Source of the DNA: Phycisphaerae bacterium
Lineage (GTDB): Bacteria > Planctomycetota > Phycisphaerae > Sedimentisphaerales > Anaerohalosphaeraceae
Assembly (NCBI GenBank): GCA_018052735.1
Contig: JAGPMT010000004.1
Coordinates: forward strand, 96,558 to 160,557
Length of the DNA: 64,000 bases
Reading direction: 5' to 3'
Each line of letters starts with the position of its first letter. Position 1 is the first letter of the stretch. Under the pieces are notes generated by a model that was given only the letters and a program-made list of their open reading frames with translations, searched no databases and was not told the origin of the DNA. The translations under genes were made by a program, and so were the position numbers. This document shows, piece after piece, positions 12,165-49,369 of this stretch.

Positions 12165-12166
12165 TT

Positions 12167-13986: not shown

Positions 13987-13993
13987 ATTTTTT

Positions 13994-14023
13994 ATTATAC
14001 CCATTTTGGAACTTTGTTTACAA
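13994..14023 (-). promoter_or_regulatory. rnpB promoter (TTGTAA-N18-TATAAT)
   Basis: Minus-strand TTGTAA at 14023-14018 and consensus TATAAT at 13999-13994. The predicted TSS, 7-8 nt downstream, coincides with the 5' strand of P1. Confidence 0.5.
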
Positions 14024-14074
14024 TCCCTTTTGCAACATATATTGCAGCTTCTTCTATATCTCATCACAAACCTG

Positions 14075-14094
14075 CAATGATATACAATGATATA
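14075..14094 (+). repeat. Exact tandem 10-bp direct repeat CAATGATATA x2 upstream of the glycosidase gene
   Basis: 14075-14084 equals 14085-14094, one helical turn apart, 72-91 nt upstream of ATG 14166. Confidence 0.6.
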
Positions 14095-14165
14095 TTTTGC
14101 TTTATTAAGAACATTAGATATATTAACAGGGGAAAATAGTATGAATCTTTATTAAGGTGTGTCTT

Positions 14166-31788: not shown

Positions 31789-32041
31789 CACCCCTATACC
31801 CTTAAACAAAATATAACTCTTTTTGTTTCCAATTAATATAATACAGAATATATAGAATCTTCTTTGTTTGTTTCGAATCGAATACAAACACCCTGCCGCT
31901 TAAAGCACAGATAAAGCATTCTACCTCTCTAGTTATGCTTTTACCCCCATATGCCGAAATTACAAGGTATCATTGTTATTATATCCATTACTGTTATGGA
32001 AATCAATTTCATTTACCATTTTAGACTTAAAATACGCATTT

Positions 32042-33058: not shown

Positions 33059-33894
33059 TCGATACCTCCGATGACCGCGGCGGCTTGTTCGTTTCTGGTT
33101 TTCCATTCTACCAGCGACTTCACGGCAAGCGTCAGCAAGGCCAGCAGCGTCAGCAGAGAAGCCATAGCAAACGCACCCACAAAATTATACTCGTTATAGA
33201 GAATTTCAATGTGCAGCGGGATCGTAGTCGTCTGACCGCGTATATGGCCGGAAACTACCGAAACTGCCCCGAATTCCCCAATTGCACGGGCATTGCACAG
33301 AATAATGCCGTATAGCAGGCCCCATTTGATATTGGGCAGGGTAATACGGCGGAAGATCTGCCATCCCCCTGCTCCCAGCACCATAGCCGCTTGTTCTTCC
33401 TCTGTACCCTGAGACTGCATCAGCGGAATGAGTTCTCGTGCAATAAATGGAAACGTTACAAACATCGTTGCCATAATAATGCCGGGCGCTGCAAATATTA
33501 TCTTGATATCGTGTTCCAAGAGCCATGGTCCCAGCCATCCGCGAGCACCAAACAGCAAAACAAATAGAAGTCCGGAAACAACCGGTGAAACAGCAAATGG
33601 CAGATCAATCAGCGTCAGCAGAAGACCTTTGCCGCGAAAGTCGAATTTGGCGATGGCCCAGGCCGCTGCAAGGCCAAAGATGAGGTTAAACGGAACAGCT
33701 GTCAGTACAACCAGCAGGGTCAGACAGACAGCCGATCGTGCATAGGGATCGGCAAATGTCTGAAAATAGGGACCTATTCCTTTGCGAAACGCTTCGATGA
33801 AAACCGCTGCCAGCGGCAGCAGTAAAAACAAGCCCAAAAACGCAAGTGCAGCTGCAGTCAGCACTATCGGGATCCAAGGTAATTTATTTTTCAT
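33055..33894 (-). CDS. cysW: Sulfate ABC transporter permease CysW
   Basis: 279-aa polytopic permease with the EAA-type loop ([15 protein letters not shown]). ATGA overlap with cysT. Confidence 0.88.
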
Positions 33895-34727
33895 TTGGCC
33901 TCCGTTTGCCTGCTCTGCAGCATCCAGCGCTGCATAAGATTGATCGTCAAGAGAAGCACAAACGACAGCAGCAGCATTCCGGCAGCAATGGCTATGGCAC
34001 CTTCATAGTCATACTGCTCCAGTTTTGTGATAATCAGCAGCGGCGCAATTTCCGTTTTCATCGGCATATTTCCTGAAATGAACACAACTGAACCGTACTC
34101 GCCGATGGCACGGGCAAAAGCCAGCGCAAAGCCCGTCAGCAGCGATGGAAGCAGTTCGGGGAAAATAACGCGTCTAAATGTCTGAAAAGGAGTTGCACCG
34201 AGACTTGCCGCCGCCTCTTCTAATTCCTTCCCAATATCTTCAAGAACCGGCTGAACCGTGCGGACAACAAAGGGCAGTCCGACAAAGGTCATAGCGATAA
34301 CAATGCCCAGCGGAGTAAAGGCCGCTTGTATGCCCAGCGGCTCCAGCAGGCGTCCGATCCAGCCGGTTGGAGCATAAAGGGTTGTTAACGTAATGCCGGC
34401 TACAGCGGTCGGAAGCGCAAAAGGCAAATCGACCATGGCATCGAATAATTTTCGACCGGGAAAACGATACCGCACCAACACCCATGCGGTCAAAAGGCCG
34501 AACACCGCATTGACCGCAGCGGCCGCAAACGATGTAGTGAAACTTAACCGGTAGGAAGCCAGCACACGCGGGGAGGTCATCGCCGCCCAGAGCTGATGAG
34601 GTTCCATTCGGACGGCAGAAATAACTAAGGCTGATAGCGGAATCAGTACAATCAAGCACAAATACAGTGCCGAATAGCCCAGAGTCAGCCCAAAACCGGG
34701 CAGCACATTTTTAGGTTTATACTGCAT
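33891..34727 (-). CDS. cysT: Sulfate ABC transporter permease CysT
   Basis: 278 aa. [16 protein letters not shown] loop. A paralogue of cysW. Confidence 0.88.
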
Positions 34728-34788
34728 CTTTATTGTTTAGAAACCGGCTTATTCACCCCTCTTCCTTGGGCAGCCGCCGAACCGCTGT

Positions 34789-35835
34789 TTATTTAACTCC
34801 ATAAATCTGATCAAACACACCACCATCATTGAAATGCCGTTCCTGAGCGGCCTGCCATCCTCCAAACACCTCATCAATAGTAAATAGTTTGATTTCAGGG
34901 AAGAGGTTCTTGTATTTTTGTGCAACCGTTTTCATTTGCGGCCGATAAAAGTGCTTGGCAGCTATTTCCTGCCCCTGTTCTGAATAAAGATATTCCAGAT
35001 AGGCCTGAGCAACCGCCAGAGTGCCCTTGCGCTGGGCAACTTTATCAACCACCGCAACGGGGGGTTCAGCCAATATGCTCAAAGAGGGTATTACCATCTC
35101 AAATTTGTCTGCTCCAAACTCTTTGATAGCCAGGAAGGCCTCGTTTTCCCAAGATAGGAAAACATCCCCAATGTTTCTCTGAACAAAGGTTGTTGTAGAA
35201 CTCCGCGCGCCGGAATCCAGCACCGGTACATTTTTATAAATTTTGCTGACAAAATCCCGAGCATATGCGTCTGCTTTAGATGCATTCTCCTCATCGGGAT
35301 GAGCAGCCCGATACTTTGCAAGAGCATATCCCCAAGCAGCCAAGTAGTTCCAGCGTGCTCCGCCGGATGTTTTGGGATTGGGTGTGATAACGGAGATATC
35401 CGAGCGGGTCAGATCGTCCCAGTCTTTGACATTTTTCGGATTTCCCTTACGCACAAGAAATACAATGGTCGAGGTATAAGGTGAACTGTTATTCGGGAGG
35501 CGAGATTTCCATTGCTTATCAATCAGGTTCCCTTTATCCGCAATAGCATCTATATCATATGCCAGCGCCAGTGTTACAACATCGGCCGGCAGTCCGTCAA
35601 TAACAGCGCGCGCTTGTTTGCCTGAACCGCCATGGGATTGCTGAATAATGACTGTATCTTGGGTTTTAACTTTCCAATAGTCGGCAAAGGCCTTGTTATA
35701 TTCCTGATACAGCTCGCGCGTTGGATCGTATGAAACATTCAGGATAGTAATTTCCTTTGAAAACGCCCAATTTCCGATACCCAGAATCATCATCCATAAT
35801 ACAGATATGAGATATGTTTTTTTGTTGATTTTCAT
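34789..35835 (-). CDS. sbp: Sulfate-binding periplasmic protein (Sbp/CysP)
   Basis: Start moved to ATG 35835 ([19 protein letters not shown] signal). [16 protein letters not shown] and [18 protein letters not shown] are classic sulfate-binding protein motifs. Confidence 0.88.
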
Positions 35836-35875
35836 AGTAAAATCCCTCCTATCAATTCCATATTCAATCTCACCG

Positions 35876-37291
35876 TTAAAATTTGATTGTAAAATCCGCA
35901 AGCACGACATCATAATCCGTTGTTTTCCCGCTGCGGGTACGCTTGGCATCCATATATGACAAGCCGATTTGGGTATTGGGAGCCAATTGGTAGCTGAAGC
36001 TGTATTTATGCCCCTTTAAATCAGTCCCCCCGCCACCAAAGGTCGCTTCTGTTAGTACACCAAGAAGAGCATCGGCTTCTATATCCCGATAGTTATAAGC
36101 AAAGGACCAAGTGCCTTTTTGCGCGGCCTTTCCTATGCTTGCTCCAGCCAGCCATGCATTGTTTTGGCCGGACTCCGCACCGGTATTGTGCGCCAAATCG
36201 CCGAAGACACGCAGAGGCAGACTGCCCATAGGCACTCCAATCTCCGCAAATCCCTGAATAATATCAAAGTCGCTGACATAGTAGCCGCCAATAGCCTTAT
36301 TGCCGTAAAACTGGCTGCTGTTGGCACCTAATCCTTCCCTTCCTTTAACATTGCCAAAATCATAATACCCCCCGCCGGCTGTCAGATACTCATCGCTGTG
36401 ACCAAATTGCCATGTGGTGCCGGCCTGAACAGCCCATAAACTGCTGTCGGCTTCCGTCTGGCGTTCTTCGAGCCAGTAGCCTCCAACGGTTCCAAATACC
36501 TTTATAGTACTGGATACGCTGGTACTATAAACACCGGCTATTCCCTCTGGGGTAATATCTGTATCAAACATCAAATCACTGTTGCCAACCATATAATACG
36601 GATTTTTTATCTTGCCGGCATAAATATTCAGTCCCCCAATTCCTGCCGGATGATAATCCACATAGGCCAAATCCAGCCAGATGTTTTTGCTGGAAAAGGC
36701 ATTGTCTAAATCCTGATTATTCGATGTCGGCGATCCTTCCCCCAAGGGGGCTTCGCTGTTGCCGCTGGCTAACCGGAATCCATAAGAAAACTCCTCATTG
36801 ACAGCATTAGTTAATCCAATTCGCGTCTGAATGCGGTTTCTGTTGCGGTCGGCTGTTTTGGAGGCATCGTCTGTCCATTCATAGCGATAGCGAAAATCTC
36901 CGAATATCTGCATTTTCTCAAGCCACTGAGGCACAGCAAAATTCTTTTTTCTCATTTCAAGCCGCTGGTCAACAATCTGCTCAATCTGCTTTCTTTCATC
37001 AGGTTGCCCAGACGAGTTATCCTGCAGAACAACAGCACCCGACGCGATGGTACCTTGCGCTTGCATAAGCCGGTCAAGTTCGGCCTGTGTTTTTGCGAGC
37101 TGTTCCGCAAGATAGGCCGTTCGCTGCCGCTCCATTTCAAGCTGTCTTTCCACATCTATCTGTTTTTGTTCCAGCTGGTTCAGACGTTCCTCCAATGTCT
37201 TGGTATCCTGCGGAGAATCGGCATGAGCCGTACACAAAAAGAGGGTGAAAACAAGGATTAAAAAAGCCAATACGGTACTGTCGTCTTTCAC
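35876..37291 (-). CDS. Outer-membrane porin-like beta-barrel with N-terminal coiled coil
   Basis: GTG start with GGAAAGGA RBS. Signal peptide ...FLCTAHA. A ~70-aa heptad-rich segment ([24 protein letters not shown]...). Alternating aromatic/glycine beta-strand pattern ending in ...DFTIKF (C-terminal Phe). Confidence 0.6.
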
Positions 37292-37324
37292 TCTTCAGTC
37301 CTTTCCTTCTTTTTCTTTTGTTTT

Positions 37325-37350
37325 ATAACGACCATTTTAGTCGTATTATA
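37325..37350 (-). promoter_or_regulatory. -10 TATAAT plus palindromic Rrf2-type operator (ACGAC-N7-GTCGT) of the porin-sbp-cysTWA operon
   Basis: The minus strand reads TATAATACGACTAAAATGGTCGTTAT. The GAC-N7-GTC core matches the architecture of IscR/Rrf2 type-1 sites and starts immediately after a consensus -10. Confidence 0.5.
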
Positions 37351-37365
37351 GAAGATAGAACACCT

Positions 37366-37830
37366 CTAAATACCTGCACCATCTGTAAACTGGGCTGCCA
37401 ATGCTTCATCATCCTGAATTAACATGTTCTGAAATACATCCGCCAGGGAAGTATGGTCCAGCCGTTTAGCCGCATAGTTGCGAACATCCAGAAAGAGCGA
37501 GCGAAACCGACAAACAGGCCGCTGATCACAATGTTCATAATGCCTCAAAGAAACGCAGCCAATAGGTGCCAAAACACCATCAAAGTGCCTTATTACCTCT
37601 CCGGCCGTAATTTTGTGGGGCGGCTTAGCTAATATGTACCCCCCCTGCTTGCCCATTGTGCTGGCTACCCACCCTTTGGCTTTCATTTCGAGCATAATAT
37701 GCTCCAGAAACCGTTTGGGGACATTATTGCGGCGGGCAAGCTCACGAATTGGAATGGGGCCTCGCTGATAATGCTCTACCAGAGTAAACAACGCTCGAAA
37801 CGCATAATCGGTTTTCATCGATATTTTCAT
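37366..37830 (-). CDS. Rrf2 family transcriptional regulator (CymR/IscR-like) with three conserved Cys
   Basis: MKISMKTDYAFRALFTL winged-helix N-terminus. The Cys cluster CVSLRHYEHCDQRPVC is a possible Fe-S ligand set. Confidence 0.85.
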   Translation of the reverse strand: MKISMKTDYAFRALFTLVEHYQRGPIPIRELARRNNVPKRFLEHIMLEMKAKGWVASTMGKQGGYILAKPPHKITAGEVIRHFDGVLAPIGCVSLRHYEHCDQRPVCRFRSLFLDVRNYAAKRLDHTSLADVFQNMLIQDDEALAAQFTDGAGI

Positions 37831-37978: not shown

Positions 37979-38407
37979 CTATGTCTTTGAAAATAAATGA
38001 GTTACTGTTTTTTTTACCACAAGCTGTTCTCTGTGATAAGCATCGTATCGGCTGTCAGTAGCAATACCAATTACCTCGTAAACTTTCTGGATTTCATTTT
38101 GCGATATAAGGGCAATTGAACAACGAATTTGTACAGGGGATTCATCCACCGTTAAAATCACTGTTTTTTCTAAATCATTCAGTTTGGATTGATGAACAGA
38201 CGCCCAAGTCAAACCGCTCCTGCAGGCATCTTTGGCGTGCTGCTGGAGCTGTTCCATTCGAACCTGATAGCCCAGAATTTTGGAATTTGCCGAAAAAATC
38301 GCCATAGCCATCCCCATCAGGGGGATTAGAACAAAGACAATCATTAAGATAAAACCACTATTTCGCTTCGTATTCATAAGGCCTTTCATTGCTTTGCCGC
38401 TTGGCAC
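37979..38407 (-). CDS. Small N-terminally anchored protein, PilX/GspK-like minor pseudopilin candidate
   Basis: Last gene of the operon. RNSGFILMIVFVLIPLMGMAMAIF resembles PilX_N/GspK anchors, which have no Glu+5. The start is ambiguous (GTG 38407, ATG 38389 or 38377). Confidence 0.45.
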   Translation of the reverse strand: MPSGKAMKGLMNTKRNSGFILMIVFVLIPLMGMAMAIFSANSKILGYQVRMEQLQQHAKDACRSGLTWASVHQSKLNDLEKTVILTVDESPVQIRCSIALISQNEIQKVYEVIGIATDSRYDAYHREQLVVKKTVTHLFSKT

Positions 38408-38424
38408 ATGGATTCAAATTATTA

Positions 38425-39231
38425 TCAATCAGGATCCTTGAAGTTAACCATCCATTCAGGCCATTGAGGCAGAGGTTTTGAAGTATCAAAACCTTTGTGC
38501 CATTTGAGCCGCCACAATTCCTTAGGGCTTACTGCAGAAACATCGCCATTAGGAAAAAGCACATTGAGCATGTTTCGATGCCAATCCACACAGAATCGCT
38601 GCATCTGGTTGTCAGGCTGGGCAGCCCACTGGGTATTTAATAAATAGTCTCTGCTTTGCGGAGGTACATCACTATCTTCAGGACGTCCGGTGTACCATAA
38701 GGCATCCAGAAACAGCGGGATTTTATAGCCGCCCACTACATCGATTGTCCGCCAGCTGTATTGGGTATCATGTCCTTCTGTCTGGATAACTTCAGGGGGA
38801 GTATCGCAGACCCACCCATTTAATCCATAGCTGCCTGAAAGAATAGTCTCTGCCTGTCCTGATTGGGAAGTGCTTTTTCCCGTTCCGTATGTTTGACGTG
38901 CAGCCGGACAAAACTTTAGTTTCGGGGTATCATAATACGCCTGCATCGCATACGGCCACAGGTCTGCACTGCGGCTTTGCAGTAAAACGCCGCTTGGATC
39001 AGCATAGGAATAATATCCTGCAAAAAAGCGGCCGTCGTGGTCTTCAGCGTACAAGGTAAACAATTCTCCCCACTGCGACAGATTAGCCATACATAGCACC
39101 TTTCTTGCCTGTTCTCTGGTTGCCCTGAGAGCCGGCAGAACAATCGACATCAGCATAGCAATGAGACTAATAACAACCAGCAGTTCGACTAAGGTAAAAG
39201 CAGTTTTCTTGCGATGGACATTTGCTTTCAT
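38425..39231 (-). CDS. Prepilin-type N-terminal cleavage/methylation protein, DUF1559-like (PVC-type major pseudopilin candidate)
   Basis: KKTAFTLVELLVVISLIAMLMSIVLPAL is a class III signal with Glu+5. The 268-aa size and Trp/Tyr-rich C-terminus are typical of planctomycete DUF1559 proteins. Confidence 0.8.
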   Translation of the reverse strand: MKANVHRKKTAFTLVELLVVISLIAMLMSIVLPALRATREQARKVLCMANLSQWGELFTLYAEDHDGRFFAGYYSYADPSGVLLQSRSADLWPYAMQAYYDTPKLKFCPAARQTYGTGKSTSQSGQAETILSGSYGLNGWVCDTPPEVIQTEGHDTQYSWRTIDVVGGYKIPLFLDALWYTGRPEDSDVPPQSRDYLLNTQWAAQPDNQMQRFCVDWHRNMLNVLFPNGDVSAVSPKELWRLKWHKGFDTSKPLPQWPEWMVNFKDPD

Positions 39232-39234
39232 GGC

Positions 39235-39729
39235 TTATATCTCTTTTTTGATAAAGTAAACATGTGTTTGTTGGAATTTCTGTTTGGATTGACCAAGGAT
39301 AGGCCGCTCGTTCCAGACAGCAAGTTCCAGAGCAATCGGCCCCTGTTCGTTTTTCCATACAATCCATTTAAGATACACATTCGGCAGTTCCCAGACATCT
39401 TCCTTTCGGTCCCTCGGCAGATTGGATTGACGAACGACTTTGCCGTCTGCCAAGCAATAACTCACTAATCCGCCGGCCTGCTTAAGAATAAGCAGATTGC
39501 TGCTGATGCGGGGATCCATCTCTATGACAGATAAATGATCCGAATGCTCCACATCCTCTTGAAGATGCTTGAGCATATGAAGCGTCTGCGTCAGTGTTTG
39601 ATAGTCCTTATAGCTTCGGGGCAGCTCTGAAATAATTTGGTGCATCGGTTTGGTCAGCAGTGCCATCATAACAACAAGTGCTGCCAGCACAGCCAGCATC
39701 TCCATTATTGTATAGCCCTTGAGCTTCAC
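39235..39729 (-). CDS. Prepilin-type pseudopilin
   Basis: GTG start overlapping the upstream stop (GTGA). MKLKGYTIMEMLAVLAALVVMMALL has G|YTIME with Glu+5. Confidence 0.65.
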   Translation of the reverse strand: MKLKGYTIMEMLAVLAALVVMMALLTKPMHQIISELPRSYKDYQTLTQTLHMLKHLQEDVEHSDHLSVIEMDPRISSNLLILKQAGGLVSYCLADGKVVRQSNLPRDRKEDVWELPNVYLKWIVWKNEQGPIALELAVWNERPILGQSKQKFQQTHVYFIKKEI

Positions 39730-40130
39730 TGTTTGAGCTCCTTTTGTGCTGCAACATAGCGGACCAAAGAGGTCTTAACCGTTTTCCTTCCTGATTTTGC
39801 AGACAGAGTCAGCTGAATTCTTTGAAGTCCCTGCCATTGCCCCTCCCCCTCAGTTATGTCAATACGGCAGTCAACATTCGGCCAGAGGCAGGCAAACGTA
39901 TCCTTGGCAATAGGTTTTCCAGTAATGTCCAAAGCATCCATCTGAGCCTGCCCAGCAGCAAGCAGCGTATGCCGAATCCAGCGCAGGTCATTTGCTTTCT
40001 TAAATGTACCCCCGACAGCTGCCAGAGCACCTATCAGGATTGTCAGCACACTGATAGCAGTTATCAATTCAAAGCTTAACACGCCAAACCGTTTTTTGTG
40101 CGCGTGAAATCTAAAACTAAAATTTTTCAT
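39726..40130 (-). CDS. Prepilin-type pseudopilin
   Basis: ATG 40130 overlaps the upstream stop (ATGA). KKRFGVLSFELITAISVLTILIGAL has G|VLSFE with Glu+5. The longer track ORF was rejected. Confidence 0.65.
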   Translation of the reverse strand: MKNFSFRFHAHKKRFGVLSFELITAISVLTILIGALAAVGGTFKKANDLRWIRHTLLAAGQAQMDALDITGKPIAKDTFACLWPNVDCRIDITEGEGQWQGLQRIQLTLSAKSGRKTVKTSLVRYVAAQKELKQ

Positions 40131-41596
40131 AAAAACATCTCGATTATTTTCACCATCGGCAAATACATTCCTGCAATCACAAATCCCACAAAACAACCAA
40201 GACCCACAATTATCAATGGACAGCATACAGCATTCATCAGATTGATTCGATAGTGGTATCGGCTTCGGTATAGATGCTCGAGGGCATCAAGAATCTGCGG
40301 TGTATTGCCCTTATTGATAGATTCATCAAAGGACCAAATCAAGGCCTTGTCAAAGCCGCACTGCTGGGCGGATTTTGCAATATTTTGCCCCTCCTCCACT
40401 CGACTAAGCCACTGCTCGAGCCGTTTTCGAAAACACCAATTCATATCGAGGTCCAGCGCATTTTGAATTACAGTATTGACAGGCCAGCCGGCCTGCAGCC
40501 CTACTTTCAGCATTTCAATCAGCTGCAGATGTGCTCGCGTTTTCTCAAACCAATGTATCACAGGCAGATGCCACTTGAACCAATCGCTCAGACGGTTTGT
40601 CAGACTAAGACGCCCGGACCTGCGGCGATAAATACTGCTGAATACACAACGTAAAACAATCAGCAGAATAACGGCGGCAATAACAGCTGCATTAAAACCT
40701 CTTGGCCCCATTATAAATTGCACTATTTGAAACAGTATCTGCGTGACGGCAGGCAATGCTGTCTGATGATCACTCAAATCTTCAAGAAGCTGTGCAAATT
40801 GGGGTATTATAAAAACAGCCAAACCCAATACAAAAAAAACTGCTGCAATCATAACCAGCAGCGGATACCAAGGATGAACCGGCCGAACTCGTCTGTAATT
40901 GTCCACTCTTTCGGTAATATCTGCCAAAATGGTTTCAATAGCATTCGGAAGCTGATTCATTTTTTCGCCACAGCGAACAGCAGCCAGCAGTTCCGGAGGG
41001 CACTTGGGATAGCCGCGGGTCAGTGCCTCCGAAAGCGTCCAGCCCTGCGTCAGCCATTCAGCAATATCTCTGAAGATGCGGGACCGCCGTTTTTTTTGAC
41101 CCTGTGCTGCAGCGTTCAATACCATCGGCAGCGGCAACGACTGCCGCATACTCATTCGGACAGCCGACAGAACATCCAGCGCCAGCGTATATCGGCAGGT
41201 CAGCTTGTAGCGAACAATTCCAACCACAACAAGAATAAACAGAACAATTCCTAAGATGTGAAATACTGCTGTTAAAAGGGCTAATAAAATCAGATATTTG
41301 AAAAGAATGATAACAATAATAGCAAACGACTTGTACCAAGGAGTTTCCAGATGACCGGCTGTCGGGACCAATCGCACCAGTACAATAGCTGCACAAAACA
41401 GACCTATCGCCATCACAACGATCCAGAAAGCCTCGTCAGTAATACCAGCAATAGCACCTCTGTCAAAATCAATTGCCGACAGGATCATACCAGCCATGGC
41501 AAACGGCAGTAAAATCAGTCCCAAAGCCGGTTTTTTCCAGATCAGAACGCAGAAGACAGCGAAAAAGATTAGATTTCCCAGATAAAGCATCCACAT
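40127..41596 (-). CDS. GspF/PilC-family platform protein paralogue with ~130-aa N-terminal polytopic extension
   Basis: 489 aa. About five hydrophobic helices precede two T2SSF-type repeats (..MRQSLPLPMVLNAAAQ..; ..MLKVGLQAGWPVNTVIQNAL..). C-terminal TM GFVIAGMYLPMVKIIEMF. Confidence 0.7.
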   Translation of the reverse strand: MWMLYLGNLIFFAVFCVLIWKKPALGLILLPFAMAGMILSAIDFDRGAIAGITDEAFWIVVMAIGLFCAAIVLVRLVPTAGHLETPWYKSFAIIVIILFKYLILLALLTAVFHILGIVLFILVVVGIVRYKLTCRYTLALDVLSAVRMSMRQSLPLPMVLNAAAQGQKKRRSRIFRDIAEWLTQGWTLSEALTRGYPKCPPELLAAVRCGEKMNQLPNAIETILADITERVDNYRRVRPVHPWYPLLVMIAAVFFVLGLAVFIIPQFAQLLEDLSDHQTALPAVTQILFQIVQFIMGPRGFNAAVIAAVILLIVLRCVFSSIYRRRSGRLSLTNRLSDWFKWHLPVIHWFEKTRAHLQLIEMLKVGLQAGWPVNTVIQNALDLDMNWCFRKRLEQWLSRVEEGQNIAKSAQQCGFDKALIWSFDESINKGNTPQILDALEHLYRSRYHYRINLMNAVCCPLIIVGLGCFVGFVIAGMYLPMVKIIEMFL

Positions 41597-41597
41597 A

Positions 41598-42797
41598 CTA
41601 CATCAAAACTTGAGTTATTTTTACCATCGGCAGAAACAAAGACAAGATAATCAGACCAATAATGCCGCCAAGGAGGATAATTAGCAGCGGCATCAGTACG
41701 GCCTGAAGCTGGGATTGGAGGGTATAGGTCTTGGCAGCATACAATTGCGCTAGCCCGTCCAAATTCTCCCTCAATTCATTCCGCTGCGATCCGAGCTGCA
41801 CCGAATAAAGAAACAAATGGCTGATTACGGAGCAGTTCAGGCCTGCCTCCATTACATTAAAGCCCTCGCGCAGCTGTCCGGCCAGCAGAACACAGTCCTG
41901 CTTGAGCCGCTCGCTGCCGGAAGATTGTCCAGCCAATTCGACCGCTGTATCCATCGTACAGCCGGCCTTGATTAAGGCCGACAGGGATTCTGCAAAGCGG
42001 GACATCAATCCGTTTCGATAAACCCGCCCCAAAAGCGGGATATTGTCCAGTACTTTCTCCTTAATTTGCCGGCCTTCCGGAGAAGCCGACAGCACTATCC
42101 AGAACAAAATACAACCACCTATAAGGATGCCGGCTCCAATCCAAAATGACCAGATATGCTCGGCCAGATTTAAAAGAAAAACTGTCAGCATCGGAAGCCC
42201 CAATCTGCCATCCGACATGTCCCACATCAATTCGGCGAAAGCGGGAACAACCATTGTAAAAAGAAACGTTACCAGAATTGCTGCAATCAGCAAAATCATC
42301 AGCGGATAGGAGATTGCCTCTATCACAATTCTGCGGGTCCTATGCTCAACCTGCAAATGGCGGTTTAAGTTCGCCAGCATCTCATGCAGCCGGCCTGTTT
42401 CAATGCCTGCCTTAAATATCATATTGTACAGCGGCGGAAAGTGTTTCTGCCGTTTTTCTATGGCTTTGTCAATCGGAATTCCCTGCTCAAGATCATCGGC
42501 AATGCTGTTGAGTAAGCTTTTCATTCGGCCAGAACCTGCATCGTGGGCCAGTTCACGCAATCCTCGCTCCAGCGGAATGCCGGCCTTGGTCAGTGAGGCA
42601 AGCTGTTCATTGAAGAGCATAAATTCGCTGCGGCCGACAGGATGCGGAGCCGGCGCCGGCTTGGCCTGCTCCAGTTCGGTCACTTGCAGGCCCAGTTCCT
42701 CCAGCGATATCCGGGCCTGATCTATATTGGCCGCTTCAATGGTTCCGGTCATCAGACGCCCTGCTTTCGTACAAGACCGATATTCAAATAATGCCAT
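41598..42797 (-). CDS. gspF: GspF/PilC-family inner-membrane platform protein (canonical length)
   Basis: 399 aa. F.Y....G....G.I.A type N-terminus (MALFEYRSCTKAGRLMTGTIEA), two T2SSF repeats, and C-terminal LFLPMVKITQVL. Confidence 0.8.
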   Translation of the reverse strand: MALFEYRSCTKAGRLMTGTIEAANIDQARISLEELGLQVTELEQAKPAPAPHPVGRSEFMLFNEQLASLTKAGIPLERGLRELAHDAGSGRMKSLLNSIADDLEQGIPIDKAIEKRQKHFPPLYNMIFKAGIETGRLHEMLANLNRHLQVEHRTRRIVIEAISYPLMILLIAAILVTFLFTMVVPAFAELMWDMSDGRLGLPMLTVFLLNLAEHIWSFWIGAGILIGGCILFWIVLSASPEGRQIKEKVLDNIPLLGRVYRNGLMSRFAESLSALIKAGCTMDTAVELAGQSSGSERLKQDCVLLAGQLREGFNVMEAGLNCSVISHLFLYSVQLGSQRNELRENLDGLAQLYAAKTYTLQSQLQAVLMPLLIILLGGIIGLIILSLFLPMVKITQVLM

Positions 42798-42800
42798 AGA

Positions 42801-44033
42801 TTATTCCTTTGCATGGGACATAAGGCGGATTTTATATCGGAATGCCGACGGCATCGGCTCGCGGAGGACGTCGGCTGTCTGGAGGATATAGGCATCCTCC
42901 TGCCTGTAATAAATCAGAGGTCTTTTTGTTACAGGATCACAGGGCAGACGTATTTCTGTTATCTCACCCAGTGAGTTTGGTAAAAGGCCATCATAGACAG
43001 ATGCATAATATCGCAATCCCTCTATGCATTCGAGAACCGCAATAAAACGATCGATCTGCTGACACATTTGTTCGGCTTGTCTGCTCGTATAGACAGGCAG
43101 GGTTTCTTGTTGCGTCCTGATCTCATTGACATCCGGTATTGCTGCAGTGCCATCGGATAGCATCTCCATCATCGGATTAAACTGTCCGGTCTTCTTGTGA
43201 TCCGGTGCATCTGTACTGTCTGCGACTAAAAAAGGCATCGGCAAATCCTGCAGAGACCGATAGAGACTTGGTGCACCGGGAGTCTGAATCCATAGTTCGA
43301 TCTGGGTGAGGATTGCAGCAGCGTTGGCGGCTGCCATCATAGCCAGCTGGGGATTTGAGCGGCACACCATTTGCCGGCTGATGCTGAGGCCGGATTGAAG
43401 CCATTCTGCAGCGCTATTATACTCCCGCCGGACAATATGATACCGAGCTTTGAGGGCTGTCAGCCTGCCGTATCGATAAATATCCATAAGAAAATCAAGA
43501 TATTCCTTCGGCGTCAAAGTAAACAGCGCTGATTCATCCGGATGAACCGCCGATACCGGATAACTGTTTATAGGAGAGTGGCTGTCCAGAGCTGGCCACT
43601 CAATATTTCTGCAGATGCTTGCTTTCTGGAGCAGTTGAAGTCTATCACGACAGCGTTCAAGCTCAGTGGCTACGGCTTTTATGTCCAGTTGCTCAGCCGG
43701 CAGACTAATCTGCTGTTCTATCAATTCGAAGTCGGGATTTTTTTCCGGTTGATTCGGGTCTTCTGTGAATACCTGCAAATAAATCGGCAGCGAAGCTTCA
43801 TTTGTCAGATCGGTCTTTAACGGCAGCAGATGAAACATTGGCCGGCCGATGTCCGCCGCTGGCGTCAGTTCCACAATCTTCATTGCTGAAGCAGAAATCC
43901 ATTGCAGAATGTTTGGGTCTGCAGGTCCCCTTGCAGGTAATATATTGGGCTTCGGTTCTGCCTGATTGGGGGCATCGGCCAAACTGCAGACACAGACGGT
44001 TAAAATCAACAATAAAGAAAACGCTTTTCTCAT
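42801..44033 (-). CDS. Signal-peptide protein of unknown function embedded in the secretion/filament operon
   Basis: 410 aa. MRKAFSLLLILTVCVCSLADA signal. No domain recognised. 3-nt gap to gspF. Confidence 0.5.
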   Translation of the reverse strand: MRKAFSLLLILTVCVCSLADAPNQAEPKPNILPARGPADPNILQWISASAMKIVELTPAADIGRPMFHLLPLKTDLTNEASLPIYLQVFTEDPNQPEKNPDFELIEQQISLPAEQLDIKAVATELERCRDRLQLLQKASICRNIEWPALDSHSPINSYPVSAVHPDESALFTLTPKEYLDFLMDIYRYGRLTALKARYHIVRREYNSAAEWLQSGLSISRQMVCRSNPQLAMMAAANAAAILTQIELWIQTPGAPSLYRSLQDLPMPFLVADSTDAPDHKKTGQFNPMMEMLSDGTAAIPDVNEIRTQQETLPVYTSRQAEQMCQQIDRFIAVLECIEGLRYYASVYDGLLPNSLGEITEIRLPCDPVTKRPLIYYRQEDAYILQTADVLREPMPSAFRYKIRLMSHAKE

Positions 44034-44063
44034 ATATCAGATGAACCTCATTTCTGTTTCGAT

Positions 44064-45212
44064 TTACACTCCGCAGACACGGCGGATTTCATCTTCGGTG
44101 GTAATGCCGCGGCTGACCAGCCGCCGCCCATCGTGCATCAGATTCATATGACCGCGGGAAGCCAGAATGGCATCCAGCGTTTCCATATCGCTGCGGTCGA
44201 GAATCGCCTTGCGCAGCATCCCGTCAAGCTCTACCATCTCTGCAATCAGTACCCGCCCATGATAGCCTGTCATATGACACCGAGAGCAGCCGACCGCTTC
44301 GTAAGCTCCATCAGGCAACTGCCTTTTGCAGCTGTCGCATAGTTTTCTAACCAGACGCTGGTTAAGAACCGCATGTATACCCGATGTAACCTGATACGGT
44401 TCAATGCCCATCTCCAGCAGACGCAGCAGCGCACCGCTGCAGCTGCCGCTGTGCATCGTTGTCATCAGCAGGTGTCCGGTCAATCCGGCTTCTACTGCAA
44501 TTCTGGCCGTTTCAGCATCCCGAATCTCGCCTATCATCAGCACTTGCGGGTCTTGACGCAGCAGTGACCGCAGCGCCATGGGAAAGGACATCTGACCCTG
44601 CGGCTCTATTTGAACCTGAGTAATCCCTTCAATGGCCCGTTCGACAGGATCTTCCAATGTCACGATGCTGTTGCCGGGAAATTGCTGCAAAATATAGCGC
44701 AGCAATGCGGCCAAGGTTGTACTCTTGCCGCTTCCAGCCGGTCCAGTCAGCAGAAGAATACCCTGATTTCTGCAGGCAAACTTCCGCAAAGCGGATTCGA
44801 TGAAGTCATTAAGGCCAAGTTCATCCAGCTGCATCAGGCCGCGATTTTCATAAAAGATTCGAACCACTGCCCGCTGCCCATAAATCGTCGGGAAAACTGC
44901 CAGCCGCAAGTCTGTAATAGTCCCGGCTTCCGACGCCACAGAGATATCCTTGAATCCCTCCATCCGGCCTTCCTGAGGGATATCGTTGCGGTAGGTCAGA
45001 AGTCCGGCCAAGACTTTTAATCGGGCTATGATATTTTCACTGATTGCCTTTGGCAGCGTTTCCACCGTATTAAGCGACCCGTCAAGTCTGAATTTAACCA
45101 GCAATGACTTGGCAGTCGGTTCAAAGTGGACATCGCTTGCCCCATATCGAATGGCTTCCGAGAGAAGTTGTTCAACTAATGCTGCAACGTTAGGTTGTGA
45201 TGTCTGATTCAT
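44064..45212 (-). CDS. gspE: GspE/PilB-family secretion ATPase, short form
   Basis: ASDVHFEP, Walker A GPAGSGKST, TLEDPVE, Walker B VLMIGEIRD, His box TGHLLMTTMHS, and zinc motif CDSC...CSRC. ATG 45212 was preferred over GTG 45245 because of the predicted TSS. Confidence 0.85.
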   Translation of the reverse strand: MNQTSQPNVAALVEQLLSEAIRYGASDVHFEPTAKSLLVKFRLDGSLNTVETLPKAISENIIARLKVLAGLLTYRNDIPQEGRMEGFKDISVASEAGTITDLRLAVFPTIYGQRAVVRIFYENRGLMQLDELGLNDFIESALRKFACRNQGILLLTGPAGSGKSTTLAALLRYILQQFPGNSIVTLEDPVERAIEGITQVQIEPQGQMSFPMALRSLLRQDPQVLMIGEIRDAETARIAVEAGLTGHLLMTTMHSGSCSGALLRLLEMGIEPYQVTSGIHAVLNQRLVRKLCDSCKRQLPDGAYEAVGCSRCHMTGYHGRVLIAEMVELDGMLRKAILDRSDMETLDAILASRGHMNLMHDGRRLVSRGITTEDEIRRVCGV

Positions 45213-45252: not shown

Positions 45253-45279
45253 GACGACCAGCAAGTCCCTTTTGTTACC
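45253..45279 (-). promoter_or_regulatory. ECF-type promoter GGTAAC-N17-CGTC of the gspE operon
   Basis: Minus-strand GGTAAC at 45279-45274, a 17-nt spacer, and CGTC at 45256-45253. The pattern is identical to 48223-48249. It lies between the upstream terminator and the ATPase start. Confidence 0.55.
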
Positions 45280-45310
45280 TAAAAAGAGCAAAAAAATCCA
45301 ACTCCCATAA

Positions 45311-45352
45311 ACAAAAAGGCCTGTCGTCAAAAGAATCAAGGACAGGCCTTTT
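45311..45352 (-). terminator. Intrinsic terminator of the 887-aa beta-helix gene
   Basis: GGCCTGTC (45318-45325) pairs with GACAGGCC (45341-45348). On the minus strand it is followed by TTTTTGTTT. Confidence 0.7.
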
Positions 45353-45376: not shown

Positions 45377-48040
45377 TTAAGGAGCCCGATACATAAGCTT
45401 GAATTTCGCACCATTTTTCGGATAAAGATAACGTACCGTTGAGGTGGCTTGCACCCATTGAAAATCAGCACCAACAGAAGTCTCTAAACCCACATCCAAG
45501 TCGCAGTTATAAGTGCCTCGAACAATCAGGCCGGTTCCGGAACTATACACTGTTCCATCAGCATTATAGGTTACCCATCCAAGGGTCAGCTTGTGGTTCT
45601 CTGAAGGAGTCAGCTGCTCGACGATAAACTTGCCATATCGCCCTGCCGAAGTTTTGTATACAAAATAGGTGCCGGGATTGAACTCCATACCATCGGAGCC
45701 GTAAATACTGGCGGTGCTCATCTGGCTTTCTAATGTTACTACGGCGGCCCGGTTTAGGGCGTCATAATCATGATATACGGCACGCCAAAAACGTGAAATA
45801 ACACTGAAATCTTCCAGCTTAACCCGGCTGTTCCAGTTGATGTCGCTGTTTTCACACCAATTGGGCATTATACAGTCGGACACCATCCAATTATCGGCCA
45901 CAACAGACAAATCGCCAAGATTTACTGAACGGTCATCATTTATATCACCCGGATACCGTTCAACATACTGACCTGTCAATTGCAGATTAAAGTCCCACGG
46001 GTGCGTATTCCAATTGGACCATAGTTCCATATTGGCCGGCTGGCCGGAGACATTCGCAGCATACCCTGTGCTGGACGGCCATGGATTATCCCATCGGCCG
46101 CAGACTCCAGAGGTAAACTCATTGTATTCACCCTGATAGAGATAGCAGGTGAAGATATATGTCTGGTTCGGTTCCAGCCAAAGATTGGAAAAAGGCATCA
46201 TCACCCAGCCGCCGGTAAAGTTTGACGGAACCAGCTTGACACTTGGGGCGAGTATGCTGCCATCTGCTTTCCGTGCATACATAATCAGATAAACCGCGTG
46301 GCCATGTCCTTCCGGGTTTGTGTAATAATCAAACGGATCATCAAACCGGAAACCTGCTGAGGTAACGTTGGCTGGACGGGTTAATGTGATACTCTGCCCA
46401 ACGCCGACGTTGCGTTTGTCGACCCGATCATCTCCGCCAAACCAGATAACCGCATTGTGCTGGTCATGAATCACATTGAAATCCAGCAGAACTCCAATCA
46501 TCGCCCACGTGGTCAAAGGACCATAGATATTGTTGGTTTCATAGGTTTCTTCAACTTCGCCTTCGGTATCCACCTGTGCATACATTCTTTTAATACCTTC
46601 GGTGGCATAGGTATAGGTTACCGTCATTGCATCTGAGGCACCTGCTGCCAAACTGGAGAATCTTTTCCATCGATCCCCTACGGTACCCGGACTGGGCAAA
46701 GAAGCTCGGTCGGCATACCAGTCCAGATAAAAAGACCCCGCATTGGTAGTACCCGCATTATGAATAGTTACGGTTACAGCAACCGGCTGGCCAACATGCG
46801 GAACTTTGGGATTGAGGCTAATAGAGGTAATCCGCAAATCGACGTTAATATACTCAAATTCATACGCTCCCATATCGATAGCGGCTATACTGTCCCCATT
46901 GCCATCCAGCGGACGGGGTTTACCATCCAAATCCTCGGCCGGAGCATCAAAATCGGACCCGGCATCAATGCAGGGGCTCGAGGCAGTCAAATGGTAATCA
47001 CCGCTGCCTGTAAACAGAGGATTAGCATTTATATTCCCCGTGCCGGCAAAACCGCCCTGAATATCGCAGTAGGAGGCAGTAGGGCCCGGACTGCTGTAAT
47101 AATCGACAATCTGATTGGGACTGTTGCCCCAGAAAATGCAATTTCTCAAGGTGGGACTGGATGTATTGGTATAAAGTGCCCCCCCGCCTGCTGCATACGC
47201 TGCCGTATTATCAGCAAAAGTGCAGTTGATAATGCTGGGCCAGGCCTGATGATAGGAAATCGCTCCTCCATAGGATGCTGAACTGTTGCTGACAAACAAG
47301 CAATTGATAATCGAGCCGTATGTTTGATAATCTCCTAAGATCGCCCCGCCTCCAAAGCCGCCTGCTGTAGAGGAGTTTGACTTGAAAATGCACTTTTCAA
47401 TCCGGGAATTTGTCTGCAACTGCCAAATGGCTCCGCCGTTATCAGCACTGTTGTCCTGAAACAGACACTCTTTAATCACCAGATTGGAACGGAGATCATA
47501 CACGGCACCGCCGACAACAGTGGCAACATTGTTGAGAAATCTGCAGTTTTGCAATGTTGTGCTGAAATCAAACCCCAGACAGCTGTAGGTTGGGCTTTCA
47601 ATATACAGCGCCCCGCCGCTCGAAGCAAGGCCGTTCTGAAATATAAAACCGTCAATGATGCTGTAGGAAGTAATCTTCATGCACCGTACAGAATTGCTAC
47701 CGTTGATAATTGTCGGATAAACGGCGGGATTGCGATCATCAAGTGTCGGTGACGCCATACCATTTGGAAAACCGCCATACATCACAACAACTTTGTTCAG
47801 TGTCAATTCGCTGGTTAGGTTGTACGTTCCGCTCTTTACCCAGATCTGGTCACTGGGAGCATAGCAAATCATATACAGCGGGCTTGCAGCAGCGATGGCA
47901 GCAGAAATCGAATTGAAAGCTGTTGGCCAGCTTTTGCCATCTCCTCCGGGCGCAACATCTGAATCAACATACCAAACAGCAGCAGAGAGACTCCCTGCTA
48001 AATAGAAAAAGAAAAGAAACAATACTGATTTGCCTTTCAT
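45377..48040 (-). CDS. Secreted right-handed beta-helix (Pmp/pectate-lyase-like repeats) - CARDB - dockerin-like protein
   Basis: Signal MKGKSVLFLFFFYLAGSLSA. Repeated GGA[IL]y...n..F.nN units (aa ~130-300). CARDB-like segment (aa ~400-510: PHVGQPVAVTVTIHNAGTTNAGSFYLDWY). Dockerin-like GDINDDRSVNLGDLSVVADNW (aa ~697-720). Confidence 0.75.
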   Translation of the reverse strand: MKGKSVLFLFFFYLAGSLSAAVWYVDSDVAPGGDGKSWPTAFNSISAAIAAASPLYMICYAPSDQIWVKSGTYNLTSELTLNKVVVMYGGFPNGMASPTLDDRNPAVYPTIINGSNSVRCMKITSYSIIDGFIFQNGLASSGGALYIESPTYSCLGFDFSTTLQNCRFLNNVATVVGGAVYDLRSNLVIKECLFQDNSADNGGAIWQLQTNSRIEKCIFKSNSSTAGGFGGGAILGDYQTYGSIINCLFVSNSSASYGGAISYHQAWPSIINCTFADNTAAYAAGGGALYTNTSSPTLRNCIFWGNSPNQIVDYYSSPGPTASYCDIQGGFAGTGNINANPLFTGSGDYHLTASSPCIDAGSDFDAPAEDLDGKPRPLDGNGDSIAAIDMGAYEFEYINVDLRITSISLNPKVPHVGQPVAVTVTIHNAGTTNAGSFYLDWYADRASLPSPGTVGDRWKRFSSLAAGASDAMTVTYTYATEGIKRMYAQVDTEGEVEETYETNNIYGPLTTWAMIGVLLDFNVIHDQHNAVIWFGGDDRVDKRNVGVGQSITLTRPANVTSAGFRFDDPFDYYTNPEGHGHAVYLIMYARKADGSILAPSVKLVPSNFTGGWVMMPFSNLWLEPNQTYIFTCYLYQGEYNEFTSGVCGRWDNPWPSSTGYAANVSGQPANMELWSNWNTHPWDFNLQLTGQYVERYPGDINDDRSVNLGDLSVVADNWMVSDCIMPNWCENSDINWNSRVKLEDFSVISRFWRAVYHDYDALNRAAVVTLESQMSTASIYGSDGMEFNPGTYFVYKTSAGRYGKFIVEQLTPSENHKLTLGWVTYNADGTVYSSGTGLIVRGTYNCDLDVGLETSVGADFQWVQATSTVRYLYPKNGAKFKLMYRAP

Positions 48041-48222: not shown

Positions 48223-48249
48223 GGTAACATATAGGAATGTAAAAGCGTC
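48223..48249 (+). promoter_or_regulatory. ECF-type autoregulatory promoter GGTAAC-N17-CGTC
   Basis: GGTAAC at 48223-48228, a 17-nt spacer, and CGTC at 48246-48249, just upstream of the sigma-factor gene. Confidence 0.55.
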
Positions 48250-48260
48250 TTTGATTCGAA

Positions 48261-48863
48261 ATGAGCGTGGACGCAGAAGAAGGGATAATGGCCATGAATC
48301 CAGCGACCTTGCGGCTGGCATTTGAGCTGACGGGTAGTACGGCTGCAGAAAAAAGCCAGATGTGGATATTATCTGCAATGCAGTACTATGGACCAGCTAT
48401 CGTCAGCATGCTGTGGCGGATTCTGGGCAGAGAAGAAGATGTTTGCGATGCCTATCAGGAAACTTTTCTTCATCTGGCCTATCTGCCTCAGCAGCAAAAA
48501 CCAGCCAACCTTCGTGCCTATCTGTTCCGTACGGCTTCCAATGTGGCCATATCCATGCTCCGCCGGAGGCAGATTGAAAAGAAATATCAGGAGCAGATTC
48601 AGCACAAAGCAATTCCGTCTTCTCCTGATCCTGCCGGTTTTTTGGATGCAATGGATCTTCAGCAGCAGCTTCGGGAAGCCATTGCTCATCTTCCGGACTA
48701 TTTGTCCGATGTTGTTGTGCTGCGGGACTTGGCCGAACTGCCATATCCGCAGGTGGCTAAAATTCTTGGAATAACAACGACAGCCGCCAGAGTTTACCGC
48801 CACAAAGCAGTCAAACTGCTGGCTCAGTGGATGTCAAAATTAGATAAGCGGGACGACTTATGA
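48261..48863 (+). CDS. ECF (sigma70 family group 4) RNA polymerase sigma factor
   Basis: Region 2 (DVCDAYQETFLHL..LRAYLFRTASNVAISMLRRR) and region 4 (LPYPQVAKILGITTTAARVYRHKAVKLL). The true start is probably ATG 48288, which has a GAAGGG RBS and fits the predicted TSS near 48256. Confidence 0.85.
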   Translation: MSVDAEEGIMAMNPATLRLAFELTGSTAAEKSQMWILSAMQYYGPAIVSMLWRILGREEDVCDAYQETFLHLAYLPQQQKPANLRAYLFRTASNVAISMLRRRQIEKKYQEQIQHKAIPSSPDPAGFLDAMDLQQQLREAIAHLPDYLSDVVVLRDLAELPYPQVAKILGITTTAARVYRHKAVKLLAQWMSKLDKRDDL

Positions 48864-49369
48864 AGACAATAAGATTAAACAATCTGTGCAGAGTTTTACA
48901 GCAGCGCAAAGTCGGTCTGTTTGATTCGTTCAGACAGCACGTGCAGCATCGCTTAATTGAACATATGGCAAATTGTCCGCGGTGCCGAAAACGCCTTGGT
49001 CTGGCCAGTCGGTTAGAAATCGCTTTGGCTATGATTAAATCCCAGCCCCATCATATTGATCTTTTACAACGGGCTAACACGCAAACATTAGCTGTATTTG
49101 CGCATGCACTTCGGTATGCTCCGAAATCACAAACATTGCGCATCAGCCGGCCAGAGCCAATTTGGGCAGTTAAAAACAGGTCCCTTATTGATCGTCTGCT
49201 GAATATTGCAGCGTGTCTTTTTGTTGTTCTGATGATGCGTTCGGGAATTTTTCATTCGCTGACCAGTTATAAAGAACAAAGTGAAGCCGTTATTCACAAC
49301 TATTACGCCCGCAATCTTGACAGCAATATGTTCAATGAAATCTTCCCCAATAACGACACGCTGGCGTGA
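48860..49369 (+). CDS. Anti-sigma factor, zinc-binding (ZAS) type, single-pass membrane protein
   Basis: Overlaps the sigma stop by 4 nt (ATGA). Has HMANCPRC (H-x3-C-x2-C), a TM segment LLNIAACLFVVLMM, and only a ~45-aa extracytoplasmic tail. Confidence 0.65.
   Translation: MKTIRLNNLCRVLQQRKVGLFDSFRQHVQHRLIEHMANCPRCRKRLGLASRLEIALAMIKSQPHHIDLLQRANTQTLAVFAHALRYAPKSQTLRISRPEPIWAVKNRSLIDRLLNIAACLFVVLMMRSGIFHSLTSYKEQSEAVIHNYYARNLDSNMFNEIFPNNDTLA

Follow-up and report, generated by a model that had tools for sequence, protein, structure and literature searches.

A conserved double-platform gene cluster of the type IV filament superfamily in Planctomycetota, with a candidate ECF sigma switch

A gene cluster belonging to the superfamily of type IV filaments (TFF) was analysed in a 64,000-nucleotide stretch, hereafter the window, of a metagenome-assembled Phycisphaerae genome from the family Anaerohalosphaeraceae (assembly GCA_018052735.1, contig JAGPMT010000004.1, positions 96,558 to 160,557). 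The cluster occupies window positions 37979-45212 on the minus strand and consists of eight co-directional open reading frames (ORFs), designated E, X, F, F', P1, P2, P3 and S in the order of reading, all of them present as the original prediction, made from the sequence alone, had described. The overlaps claimed in that prediction, ATGA between F' and P1 (40130-40127) and GTGA between P1 and P2 (39729-39726), were read directly, but its statement that all other gaps were of 1-3 nt required correction: this applies to X-F (3 nt), F-F' (1 nt) and P2-P3 (3 nt), whereas E and X are separated by 30 nt and P3 and S by 17-35 nt.

The first gene, E (44064..45212, 382 aa), encodes an extension-type ATPase of the GspE/PilB family that matched PF00437 at 1.3e-102 in a Pfam search. 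As the alignment covered just model positions 104-485 for GspE and 178-561 for PilB in NCBIfam, the protein comprises the N2 and C-terminal domains without the N1 region, as had been expected of an ATPase lacking the long N-terminal region. The longest possible ORF would yield 393 aa, and the extent of the protein is that of the crystallised N1-less PilF and EpsE constructs, the best match in the Protein Data Bank (PDB) being Thermus PilF (5e-79). The predicted Walker A, Asp and His boxes and zinc motif were all located (Walker A at 157, Asp box at 186, Walker B at 224, His box at 245, and the tetracysteine motif as CDSC at 292 and CSRC at 309). The 67 core E orthologues recovered from related loci measured 382-441 aa; CxxC..CxxC was retained in 66 of them and the N1 region was missing in all. 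E scored under every curated equivalog cut-off (GspE, 372.2 versus 630; PilB, 340 versus 676; ComGA, 214.7 versus 300) and gave 31.6 bits against the TadA family, for which the cut-off is 373. Core E proteins shared 62-100% identity with one another (mean 73%), 38% with a full-length PilB-like ATPase of some of the same loci and 22% with PilT, and on these sequence identities they are a tight group of their own. Placement of the ATPase within an already characterised clade, which would have spoken against a distinct system, is not indicated by these scores and identities.

The two consecutive platform genes each encode two T2SSF stretches, in agreement with the predicted pair of full-length, double-repeat proteins. 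F (41598..42797, 399 aa) is a canonical GspF/PilC platform with three transmembrane (TM) segments; it matched the GspF model TIGR02120 from end to end (5.8e-65; 220.1 bits, under the curated cut-off of 424) and the PilC structure 3jc8 at 3.6e-36. F' (40127..41596, 489 aa) is more divergent, with its two T2SSF domains detected at 1.4e-19 and a GspF model score of 90.4 versus the same cut-off of 424. Its match to GspF/HofC begins only at residue ~150 (1e-25), after four or five hydrophobic helices, such that an N-terminal extension of 4-5 TM segments stands in place of the soluble N-terminal domain, followed by the two T2SSF domains with three TM segments. An AlphaFold2 (AF2) model of F' (pLDDT 79) matched PilC and the cytoplasmic domains of EpsF, OutF, TcpE and PilC in Foldseek, with TM-scores of 0.71-0.83 relative to the target, and the modelled protein has the platform fold. 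A fused prepilin peptidase was considered for the N-terminal helical bundle and rejected: the domain is only ~130 aa long, has no invariant Asp (P23 and W87 being its sole invariant or near-invariant residues) and obtained no Foldseek match. In a phylogenetic tree, F and F' formed separate clades whose internal topologies mirror each other, indicating that the two genes are co-inherited. The distance of F' to F was 0.91, compared with 0.92 to unrelated GspF/PilC proteins, and F' evolves faster; being equally far from both, F' is an old divergent paralogue and not a recent copy.

Three of the four small genes that follow carry the class III signals with Glu at position +5 that had been predicted, namely P1 (39726..40130, 134 aa; G↓VLSFE), P2 (39235..39729, 164 aa; G↓YTIME) and P3 (38425..39231, 268 aa; A↓FTLVE), while S (37979..38407, 136-142 aa) is a small prepilin-like protein with the signal G↓FILMI and no Glu5. 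Among 46 orthologues of each core prepilin, position -1 was Gly in all P1 proteins and Gly or Ala in P2 proteins, with Glu5 in 45 of 46 in both families; S proteins had Gly-1 in 46/46, Phe+1 in 42/46 and Leu, Ile, Phe or Met at position +5 in 46/46, never Glu. P3 matched N_methyl in Pfam (27.7 bits) and ends in an H-X9-(D/N)G motif, found as H-X9-[DN]G in 12 of 15 members of its family. It is a DUF1559-like pilin and, occurring in only 10/63 loci, accessory and not core. Matches of P2 to ComGD/GF/GE and of P3 to ComGC were weak, below cut-offs and confined to the generic N-terminal prepilin helix, and the scores of the pilins against T2SS models were likewise low (GspG, 26.2 versus 88.9; GspH, 18.9 versus 80). 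In type II secretion systems (T2SS), the Glu5-less subunit GspK caps the filament, and the same lack of Glu5 suggests by analogy that S is a tip or initiator subunit.

The generic definition of a TFF system is a clustered PilB/GspE ATPase, a T2SSF platform and at least one class III prepilin signal (Denise et al. 2019, PMC6668835). All of these elements were found at the locus: PF00437 in E, PF00482 in two genes, N_methyl in P3 and G/A↓(F,Y,V)xxxE in P1-P3. When 44 of the window's ORFs with a length of 120 aa or more, among them every long non-nested one, were scanned with Pfam, no secretin (PF00263), A24 peptidase, PilM/N/O or GspC/L/M was recovered. The predicted absence of these parts therefore holds for the locus and for the scanned ORFs of the 64 kb.

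To place the cluster among its relatives, one genome per GTDB species was scanned with F', which identified 159 species with relatives. From these, 80 loci were retrieved; genes in these loci were called with our own crude ORF calling and clustered, with official gene calls used for four loci, so presence counts are lower bounds. X and F' were 99-100% identical to proteins of Anaerohalosphaeraceae or Phycisphaerae metagenome-assembled genomes. The F' family contained ~76 clusters at E <= 1e-49, with complete members of 450-503 aa, and all named ones were from Planctomycetota; the next matches were ordinary GspF/PilC proteins at E >= 1e-16, and in sequence space the family is a sharply bounded clade. 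The conserved order across ~80 loci was a divergent pair of an extracytoplasmic function (ECF) sigma factor and a ~180-aa protein, followed by E-[X]-F-F'-P1-P2-S. Recurrence of this gene order in so many loci from other genomes means that the cluster is not a product of chance. Its conserved core is E, F, F', P1, P2 and S, with X and P3 as accessory genes. Outer flanks vary: the window has a sulfate ABC transporter, porin and Rrf2 regulator, some loci have a 1840-aa protein with a glycogen-synthase domain, and still others have oxidoreductases or EamA transporters. Annotation of the ten neighbour families that recur most often revealed no secretin, peptidase or alignment-complex protein; in particular, the adjacent secretin or GspL/M genes that would have marked this copy as a fragment were absent from the conserved neighbour families annotated.

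The cluster is thus real and conserved, and neither an artefact nor a fragment of a neighbouring canonical cluster. The reading best supported, which we hold with moderate confidence, is that it encodes a self-contained minimal module for TFF assembly, which is confined to Planctomycetota and occurs mainly in Phycisphaerae (Sedimentisphaerales, Anaerohalosphaeraceae). Ortholog loci and the E scores both support the original claim of a distinct, lineage-restricted TFF member with two full-length platforms and no locus-encoded secretin or alignment complex; the lineage restriction stands, although 'PVC-specific' is to be narrowed to Planctomycetota, mainly Phycisphaerae.

The sigma factor gene of the conserved order lies in the window at 48261..48863 on the plus strand, divergent from the E operon. 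Its product contains Sigma70_r2 and r4_2 domains in Pfam and scored 71.5 bits against TIGR02937 (sigma70-ECF), over the cut-off of 42.9, and a homologous sigma gene was divergent from and upstream of E in at least 50 of 57 loci. The next gene (48860..49369, plus strand) overlaps the sigma stop codon and encodes a putative membrane-anchored zinc-type (ZAS) anti-sigma factor. It obtained no match in Pfam or NCBIfam, but looks like a ZAS protein in carrying HxxxCxxC (H-MAN-C-PR-C in the window, and HxxxCxxC in 56/57 orthologues of the post-sigma protein) and one hydrophobic stretch, identified by eye at residues ~113-131.

A gapped-motif search without prior bias recovered the same bipartite element upstream of E and of the sigma gene, with a -35 consensus of GTAAC(G/A)TT, a -10 consensus of GCGTCTTA and a TAAC to CGTC gap of 16-17 nt. 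AAC and CGT form the classical ECF promoter signature. In 55/63 loci TAAC-N16/17-CGTC lay upstream of E, and in 50/58 it lay upstream of sigma (~87% of loci), whereas the shuffled-sequence control averaged 0.135 and never exceeded 2. Across 1.27 Mb of loci there were 149 matches, of which 59 precede E and 50 precede sigma. Within the window, GTAAC-N17-CGTC had exactly two matches where 0.13 were expected: one 40 nt before the E start codon (45253..45278, minus strand) and one before the sigma gene (48224..48249, plus strand), the latter suggestive of autoregulation. The putative promoter motif is, within the loci, specific to the E and sigma genes. The features expected of an ECF sigma/ZAS pair are all present (sigma2 and sigma4 regions only, an HxxxCxxC partner predicted to be co-transcribed, and a putative AAC/CGT-type promoter shared by the sigma gene and its target), and the E operon is very likely a direct target of the adjacent, autoregulated ECF sigma factor. 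A simple scan for sigma-70 promoters and terminators was uninformative, and no riboswitch or RNA element was found upstream of E with Rfam.

Between sigma and E, the window carries an 887-aa gene (45377-48040, minus strand), which otherwise occupies this position in the window's closest relatives alone (L002, L005 and L006). The protein has a signal peptide, a beta-helix, Chlamydia-PMP repeats, CARDB and a choice-of-anchor Q domain. The gene has its own sigma-70-like promoter match (48106-48079), no ECF motif, and its own intrinsic terminator at 45306..45352 on the minus strand (a 12-bp stem followed by UUUUUGUUU; -20.2 kcal/mol, z = -3.1). As this terminator lies between the two, the E operon is isolated from the 887-aa gene. 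Membership of the operon, or a role as its cargo, was consequently rejected for the beta-helix protein given its own terminator, the lack of an ECF motif and a position limited to the nearest relatives.

A PilT-like gene directly follows S in 17/63 loci (L016, L019, L023, L025, L030, L031, L034, L036, L039, L040, L055, L059, L062, L063, L071, L074 and L080), with none in the window operon. In the four loci checked (L034, L039, L059 and L063) its start overlaps the S stop by 1-4 nt. The encoded proteins are 342-375 aa long without a tetracysteine motif, and the PilT-like protein scored 360.8 bits against TIGR01420 (PilT/PilU), over the cut-off of 319.1. PilT occurs in both major F' sub-clades, and L016 has P3 and PilT together; given its presence in both sub-clades, PilT is probably ancestral to the operon and was lost in the lineage of the window. 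Its occurrence in related loci favours a retractile pilus over a T2SS. An alternative is a T2SS-like secretion device. Here a periplasmic pseudopilus would drive folded substrates across an outer-membrane conduit, with the large beta-helix proteins or those with a glycosyltransferase domain that are encoded nearby as examples of possible cargo. The best family scores of E and F are indeed those of the GspE and GspF models, S lacks Glu5 as does the T2SS tip pseudopilin GspK, and large signal-peptide proteins are often nearby. However, no large secreted neighbour was conserved across the loci, the 887-aa gene is a separate transcription unit, and no secretin, nor a GspC that could recruit cargo, was found among scanned window ORFs and annotated neighbours, while the PilT gene of the 17 related operons is a T4aP (type IVa pilus) feature lost in the T2SS lineage (PMC10191384). 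This secretion device is considered improbable. The parts that define a T2SS are more generally missing from the window and annotated neighbour families, there being no GspD, no GspC/L/M and no GspE N1 domain, nor any equivalog cut-off reached, and both the second platform and the PilT of relatives set the cluster apart from Gsp/Pul systems.

It could also be proposed that the cluster is only the inner-membrane and pilin sub-cluster of a canonical T4aP or T2SS, with the secretin, PilMNOP/GspCLM and peptidase genes scattered and the platform merely duplicated. T2SS genes of Legionella are scattered in the genome. Prepilin peptidases are often shared between systems and encoded elsewhere (PMC6668835), and other Planctomycetes encode PilD, PilQ, PilMNO and PilT (PMC7397252). 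A full-length PilB-like ATPase is found near some of the related loci, and E and F score closest to GspE/PilB and GspF. Against this, the GspL-docking N1 region is missing in all 67 E orthologues, E and F fall far under every equivalog cut-off and F' is no recent duplicate; further, the composition of the cluster remains constant in ~80 loci while the flanks change, without an alignment-complex protein or secretin among annotated conserved neighbours. A scattered canonical system is accordingly judged unlikely, though it is the most credible of the competing explanations. The resemblance to T4aP consists of a PilB/PilF-type ATPase, a PilC-like platform and a true PilT in the 17 related loci. 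Unlike T4aP, the module has no PilY1, its ATPase has no PilB N-terminal domains, its platforms are two, and only three or four pilin genes are present without a recognisable FimU/PilVWX set; the defining combination of PilMNOP and PilQ is absent from the window's scanned ORFs and annotated conserved neighbourhoods.

Among described systems, the module appears by comparison of parts to be most Com-like in its minimal membrane complex and N1-less ATPase, and Tad-like only in its two platform genes. The Com pilus of monoderms (ComGA-ComGG) likewise pairs an N1-less ATPase with a platform, while its operon lacks PilMNOP/GspCLM and secretin genes (PMC10191384), and its operon order of ATPase, platform and few small prepilins is similar. 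The present case differs in that the host is a diderm, the platforms are two and full-length, control by an ECF sigma factor is predicted and competence genes are not linked; the tetracysteine motif is retained in E, whose scores are nearer to GspE/PilB than to ComGA; and the Com pilus lost PilT, whereas relatives of this module carry it. These comparisons bear on the possibility of a Com-like DNA-uptake pseudopilus, that is, a short periplasmic filament pulling DNA in. An ATPase and platform without MNOP follow the Com logic (PMC10191384), the PilT of relatives would suit uptake by retraction, and P2 and P3 gave the weak Com pilin matches noted above, but these cover the generic prepilin helix only, scores were below the cut-offs for ComGA (214.7 versus 300) and ComGB (109.9 versus 240) and higher for GspE/PilB and GspF, and no ComEA, ComEC or DprA homologue was among annotated conserved neighbour families. 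Com pili are, moreover, described for monoderms, while this host has a neighbouring porin gene. DNA uptake is therefore the least probable of the functions considered.

With regard to Tad, the original remark that paired platforms are otherwise a Tad trait agrees with the literature, which names two adjacent platform genes (TadB/TadC) only for Tad/Epd systems, Tad/Flp (type IVc) being the only bacterial TFF so described; those platforms have one T2SSF domain each and arose by gene fission (PMC6668835, PMC10191384). In contrast, F and F' carry two domains each, E is not of the TadA/CpaF type, the pilins do not resemble Flp, and TadZ, RcpA and TadV are absent. The layout of the module, which combines an N1-less ATPase with two full-length platforms, three core prepilins and probable ECF control, fits no described pilus or secretion family, and literature searches for this architecture in Planctomycetes, Phycisphaerae and Sedimentisphaerales found no description.

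X (42801..44033), a 410-aa exported protein, requires separate consideration. A signal peptide was predicted, and X had no match in Pfam, NCBIfam or PDB sequences, in keeping with the earlier description of a protein without a recognisable domain; its AF2 model (pTM 0.75) had no PDB fold match with E < 1. The X gene was absent from 27 loci, single in 30 and doubled in nine, and in loci without it E and F are at most 256 nt apart (21-70 nt in most). In seven loci X is accompanied by an unrelated ~550-aa protein. A profile search recovered 4065 representative relatives, of which 1178 reached E <= 1e-30, and ten tested relatives had no Pfam domain. Typical relatives of ~480 aa were located in at least 594 metagenome loci, of which 80 (L087-L166) were fetched. 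These carry cassettes of an ECF sigma gene, a ~145-220-aa TM protein, the X-like gene and a ~460-540-aa partner, 'Y', with Y proteins mutually homologous in 48/53 cases and the sigma gene no more than two genes upstream in at least 23/47 loci (crude ORF calling); no E or F genes were present in the fetched cassettes. Because its relatives sit in pilus-free sigma cassettes, X is regarded as an exported, ECF-sigma-linked protein and not a structural pilus part. It is probably a periplasmic protein tied to signalling, and the cassettes may form an undescribed ECF signalling module of Planctomycetes. X was correctly placed in the operon by the original prediction but belongs to an accessory, ECF-sigma-linked family and has no core role. 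Its candidacy as an analogue of GspL/M/C or a pilotin was rejected, as it is missing in 27 loci and doubled in nine and the wider family occurs in E/F-free sigma cassettes. By eye, the C-terminal helix-plus-sheet of X resembles the alpha1C region of DUF1559-type pseudopilins; hhalign placed the X helix on the P3 alpha1C region only weakly (P = 0.0066, probability 5.8%), and one Y protein had a short DUF1559 match.

A possible sequence of events for the self-contained minimal module is as follows. An envelope or redox signal would cause the ZAS anti-sigma factor to release sigma, upon which the operon would be transcribed, and a prepilin peptidase encoded elsewhere would process P1, P2, S and P3. 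The E hexamer may dock directly on the cytoplasmic domains of F and F' without a GspL/PilM adaptor, as in Com pili, and drive filament polymerisation; for Com pili, ATPase and platform have been proposed to be the whole membrane complex (PMC10191384). F and F' would jointly form the platform, with the additional membrane domain of F' replacing part of the missing PilMNO/GspLM scaffold. S would be inserted first, at the tip, followed by P1 and P2, together with the DUF1559-like P3 in the lineage of the window, and PilT, in the 17 related loci, would make the filament retractile. X would not be a part of the machine but a periplasmic member of its ECF-sigma-linked family. Crossing of the outer membrane would need a conduit encoded elsewhere.

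Several points weigh against this reading. Prepilin processing and surface exposure are assumptions, with the peptidase and secretin scans covering only the window, and both hetero-oligomerisation of F and F' and the idea that the N-terminal domain of F' acts as a scaffold are conjecture. How two paralogues would be accommodated in a 3-fold platform is not obvious. The globular parts of P1, P2 and S matched no solved pilin in PDB profile searches, in which only the prepilin helix was matched, and no major pilin was recognised in the core set. Finally, assignment of the promoters rests on conservation of the motif. A more far-reaching version, in which the cluster represents an unclassified TFF family outside T4aP, T2SS, MSH and Com that is PilMNO-less, double-platform and ancestrally PilT-equipped, with heteromeric F/F' and perhaps assembling DUF1559/H-X9-DG prepilin-like proteins on an ECF signal, is offered tentatively and is less likely than the minimal module itself.

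A number of additional observations were made in the related loci. Thirty-two of the 80 loci are titled 'uncultured Pirellulales' (L011, L020-L026 and others), yet are syntenic with Sedimentisphaerales/Anaerohalosphaeraceae loci, L011 matching L012 gene for gene, and the label looks unreliable. Beyond the sigma pair and on the opposite strand, 11 loci (L020, L023, L030, L031, L040, L055, L059, L062, L071, L072 and L080) carry a 618-663-aa GspE/PilB-like ATPase with an MshEN domain, which may belong to a separate system; in several of these a ~434-aa protein with a GrpE-like domain lies beside it. A 349-aa Hsp70/MreB-like family was also recurrent in fetched loci. The ~1840-aa protein has a C-terminal GT5 (glycogen/starch-synthase-like) domain and lies 110-220 nt after S in L003, L004, L007, L008, L011 and L012, which are Anaerohalosphaeraceae-type loci without the downstream genes of the window. 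In the window, the Rrf2 regulator, a Porin_5 porin and a sulfate/thiosulfate-type ABC importer lie directly downstream of the operon (32042-37830, minus strand), an arrangement common to the window and L005 and not found in more distant loci.

Further from the module, the window encodes a 2152-aa protein with three lamin-tail domains, LamG and CotH kinase domains (25429-31887, minus strand), and a bacterial RNase P class A RNA (13605-13985, minus strand; 271.9 bits), the latter being the only Rfam match in the window and overlapped by a probably spurious 127-aa ORF (13756-14139, plus strand). A stand-alone PilZ-domain protein (10327-10725, minus strand) adjoins a histidine kinase and a sigma-54-dependent response regulator (11079-13546, plus strand), with no evident link to the module 25 kb away.

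Current TFF models place a homotrimeric platform, or 'drill chuck', under the ATPase hexamer and treat PilMNO/GspLM as stabilisers and not as core parts (PMC10191384). A natural diderm system with no locus-encoded alignment complex and two co-evolving full-length platforms would allow a direct test of both ideas, raising the questions of the F/F' stoichiometry and of whether an added platform membrane domain can replace PilMNO, and a machine that has PilT but no PilMNO could be close to the proposed pre-T4aP ancestor. The analysis also provides a first genomic context for the X family, which has more than 4000 representatives, no Pfam model and no structural relative. The predicted ECF-type promoter motif common to the operon and the adjacent sigma gene is new here, and would mean that a clade-wide ECF sigma/anti-sigma switch is linked to a surface or periplasmic filament in Planctomycetes. 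For DUF1559-type pseudopilins, which have been a puzzle since the first Rhodopirellula genome, the module is a candidate assembly machine.

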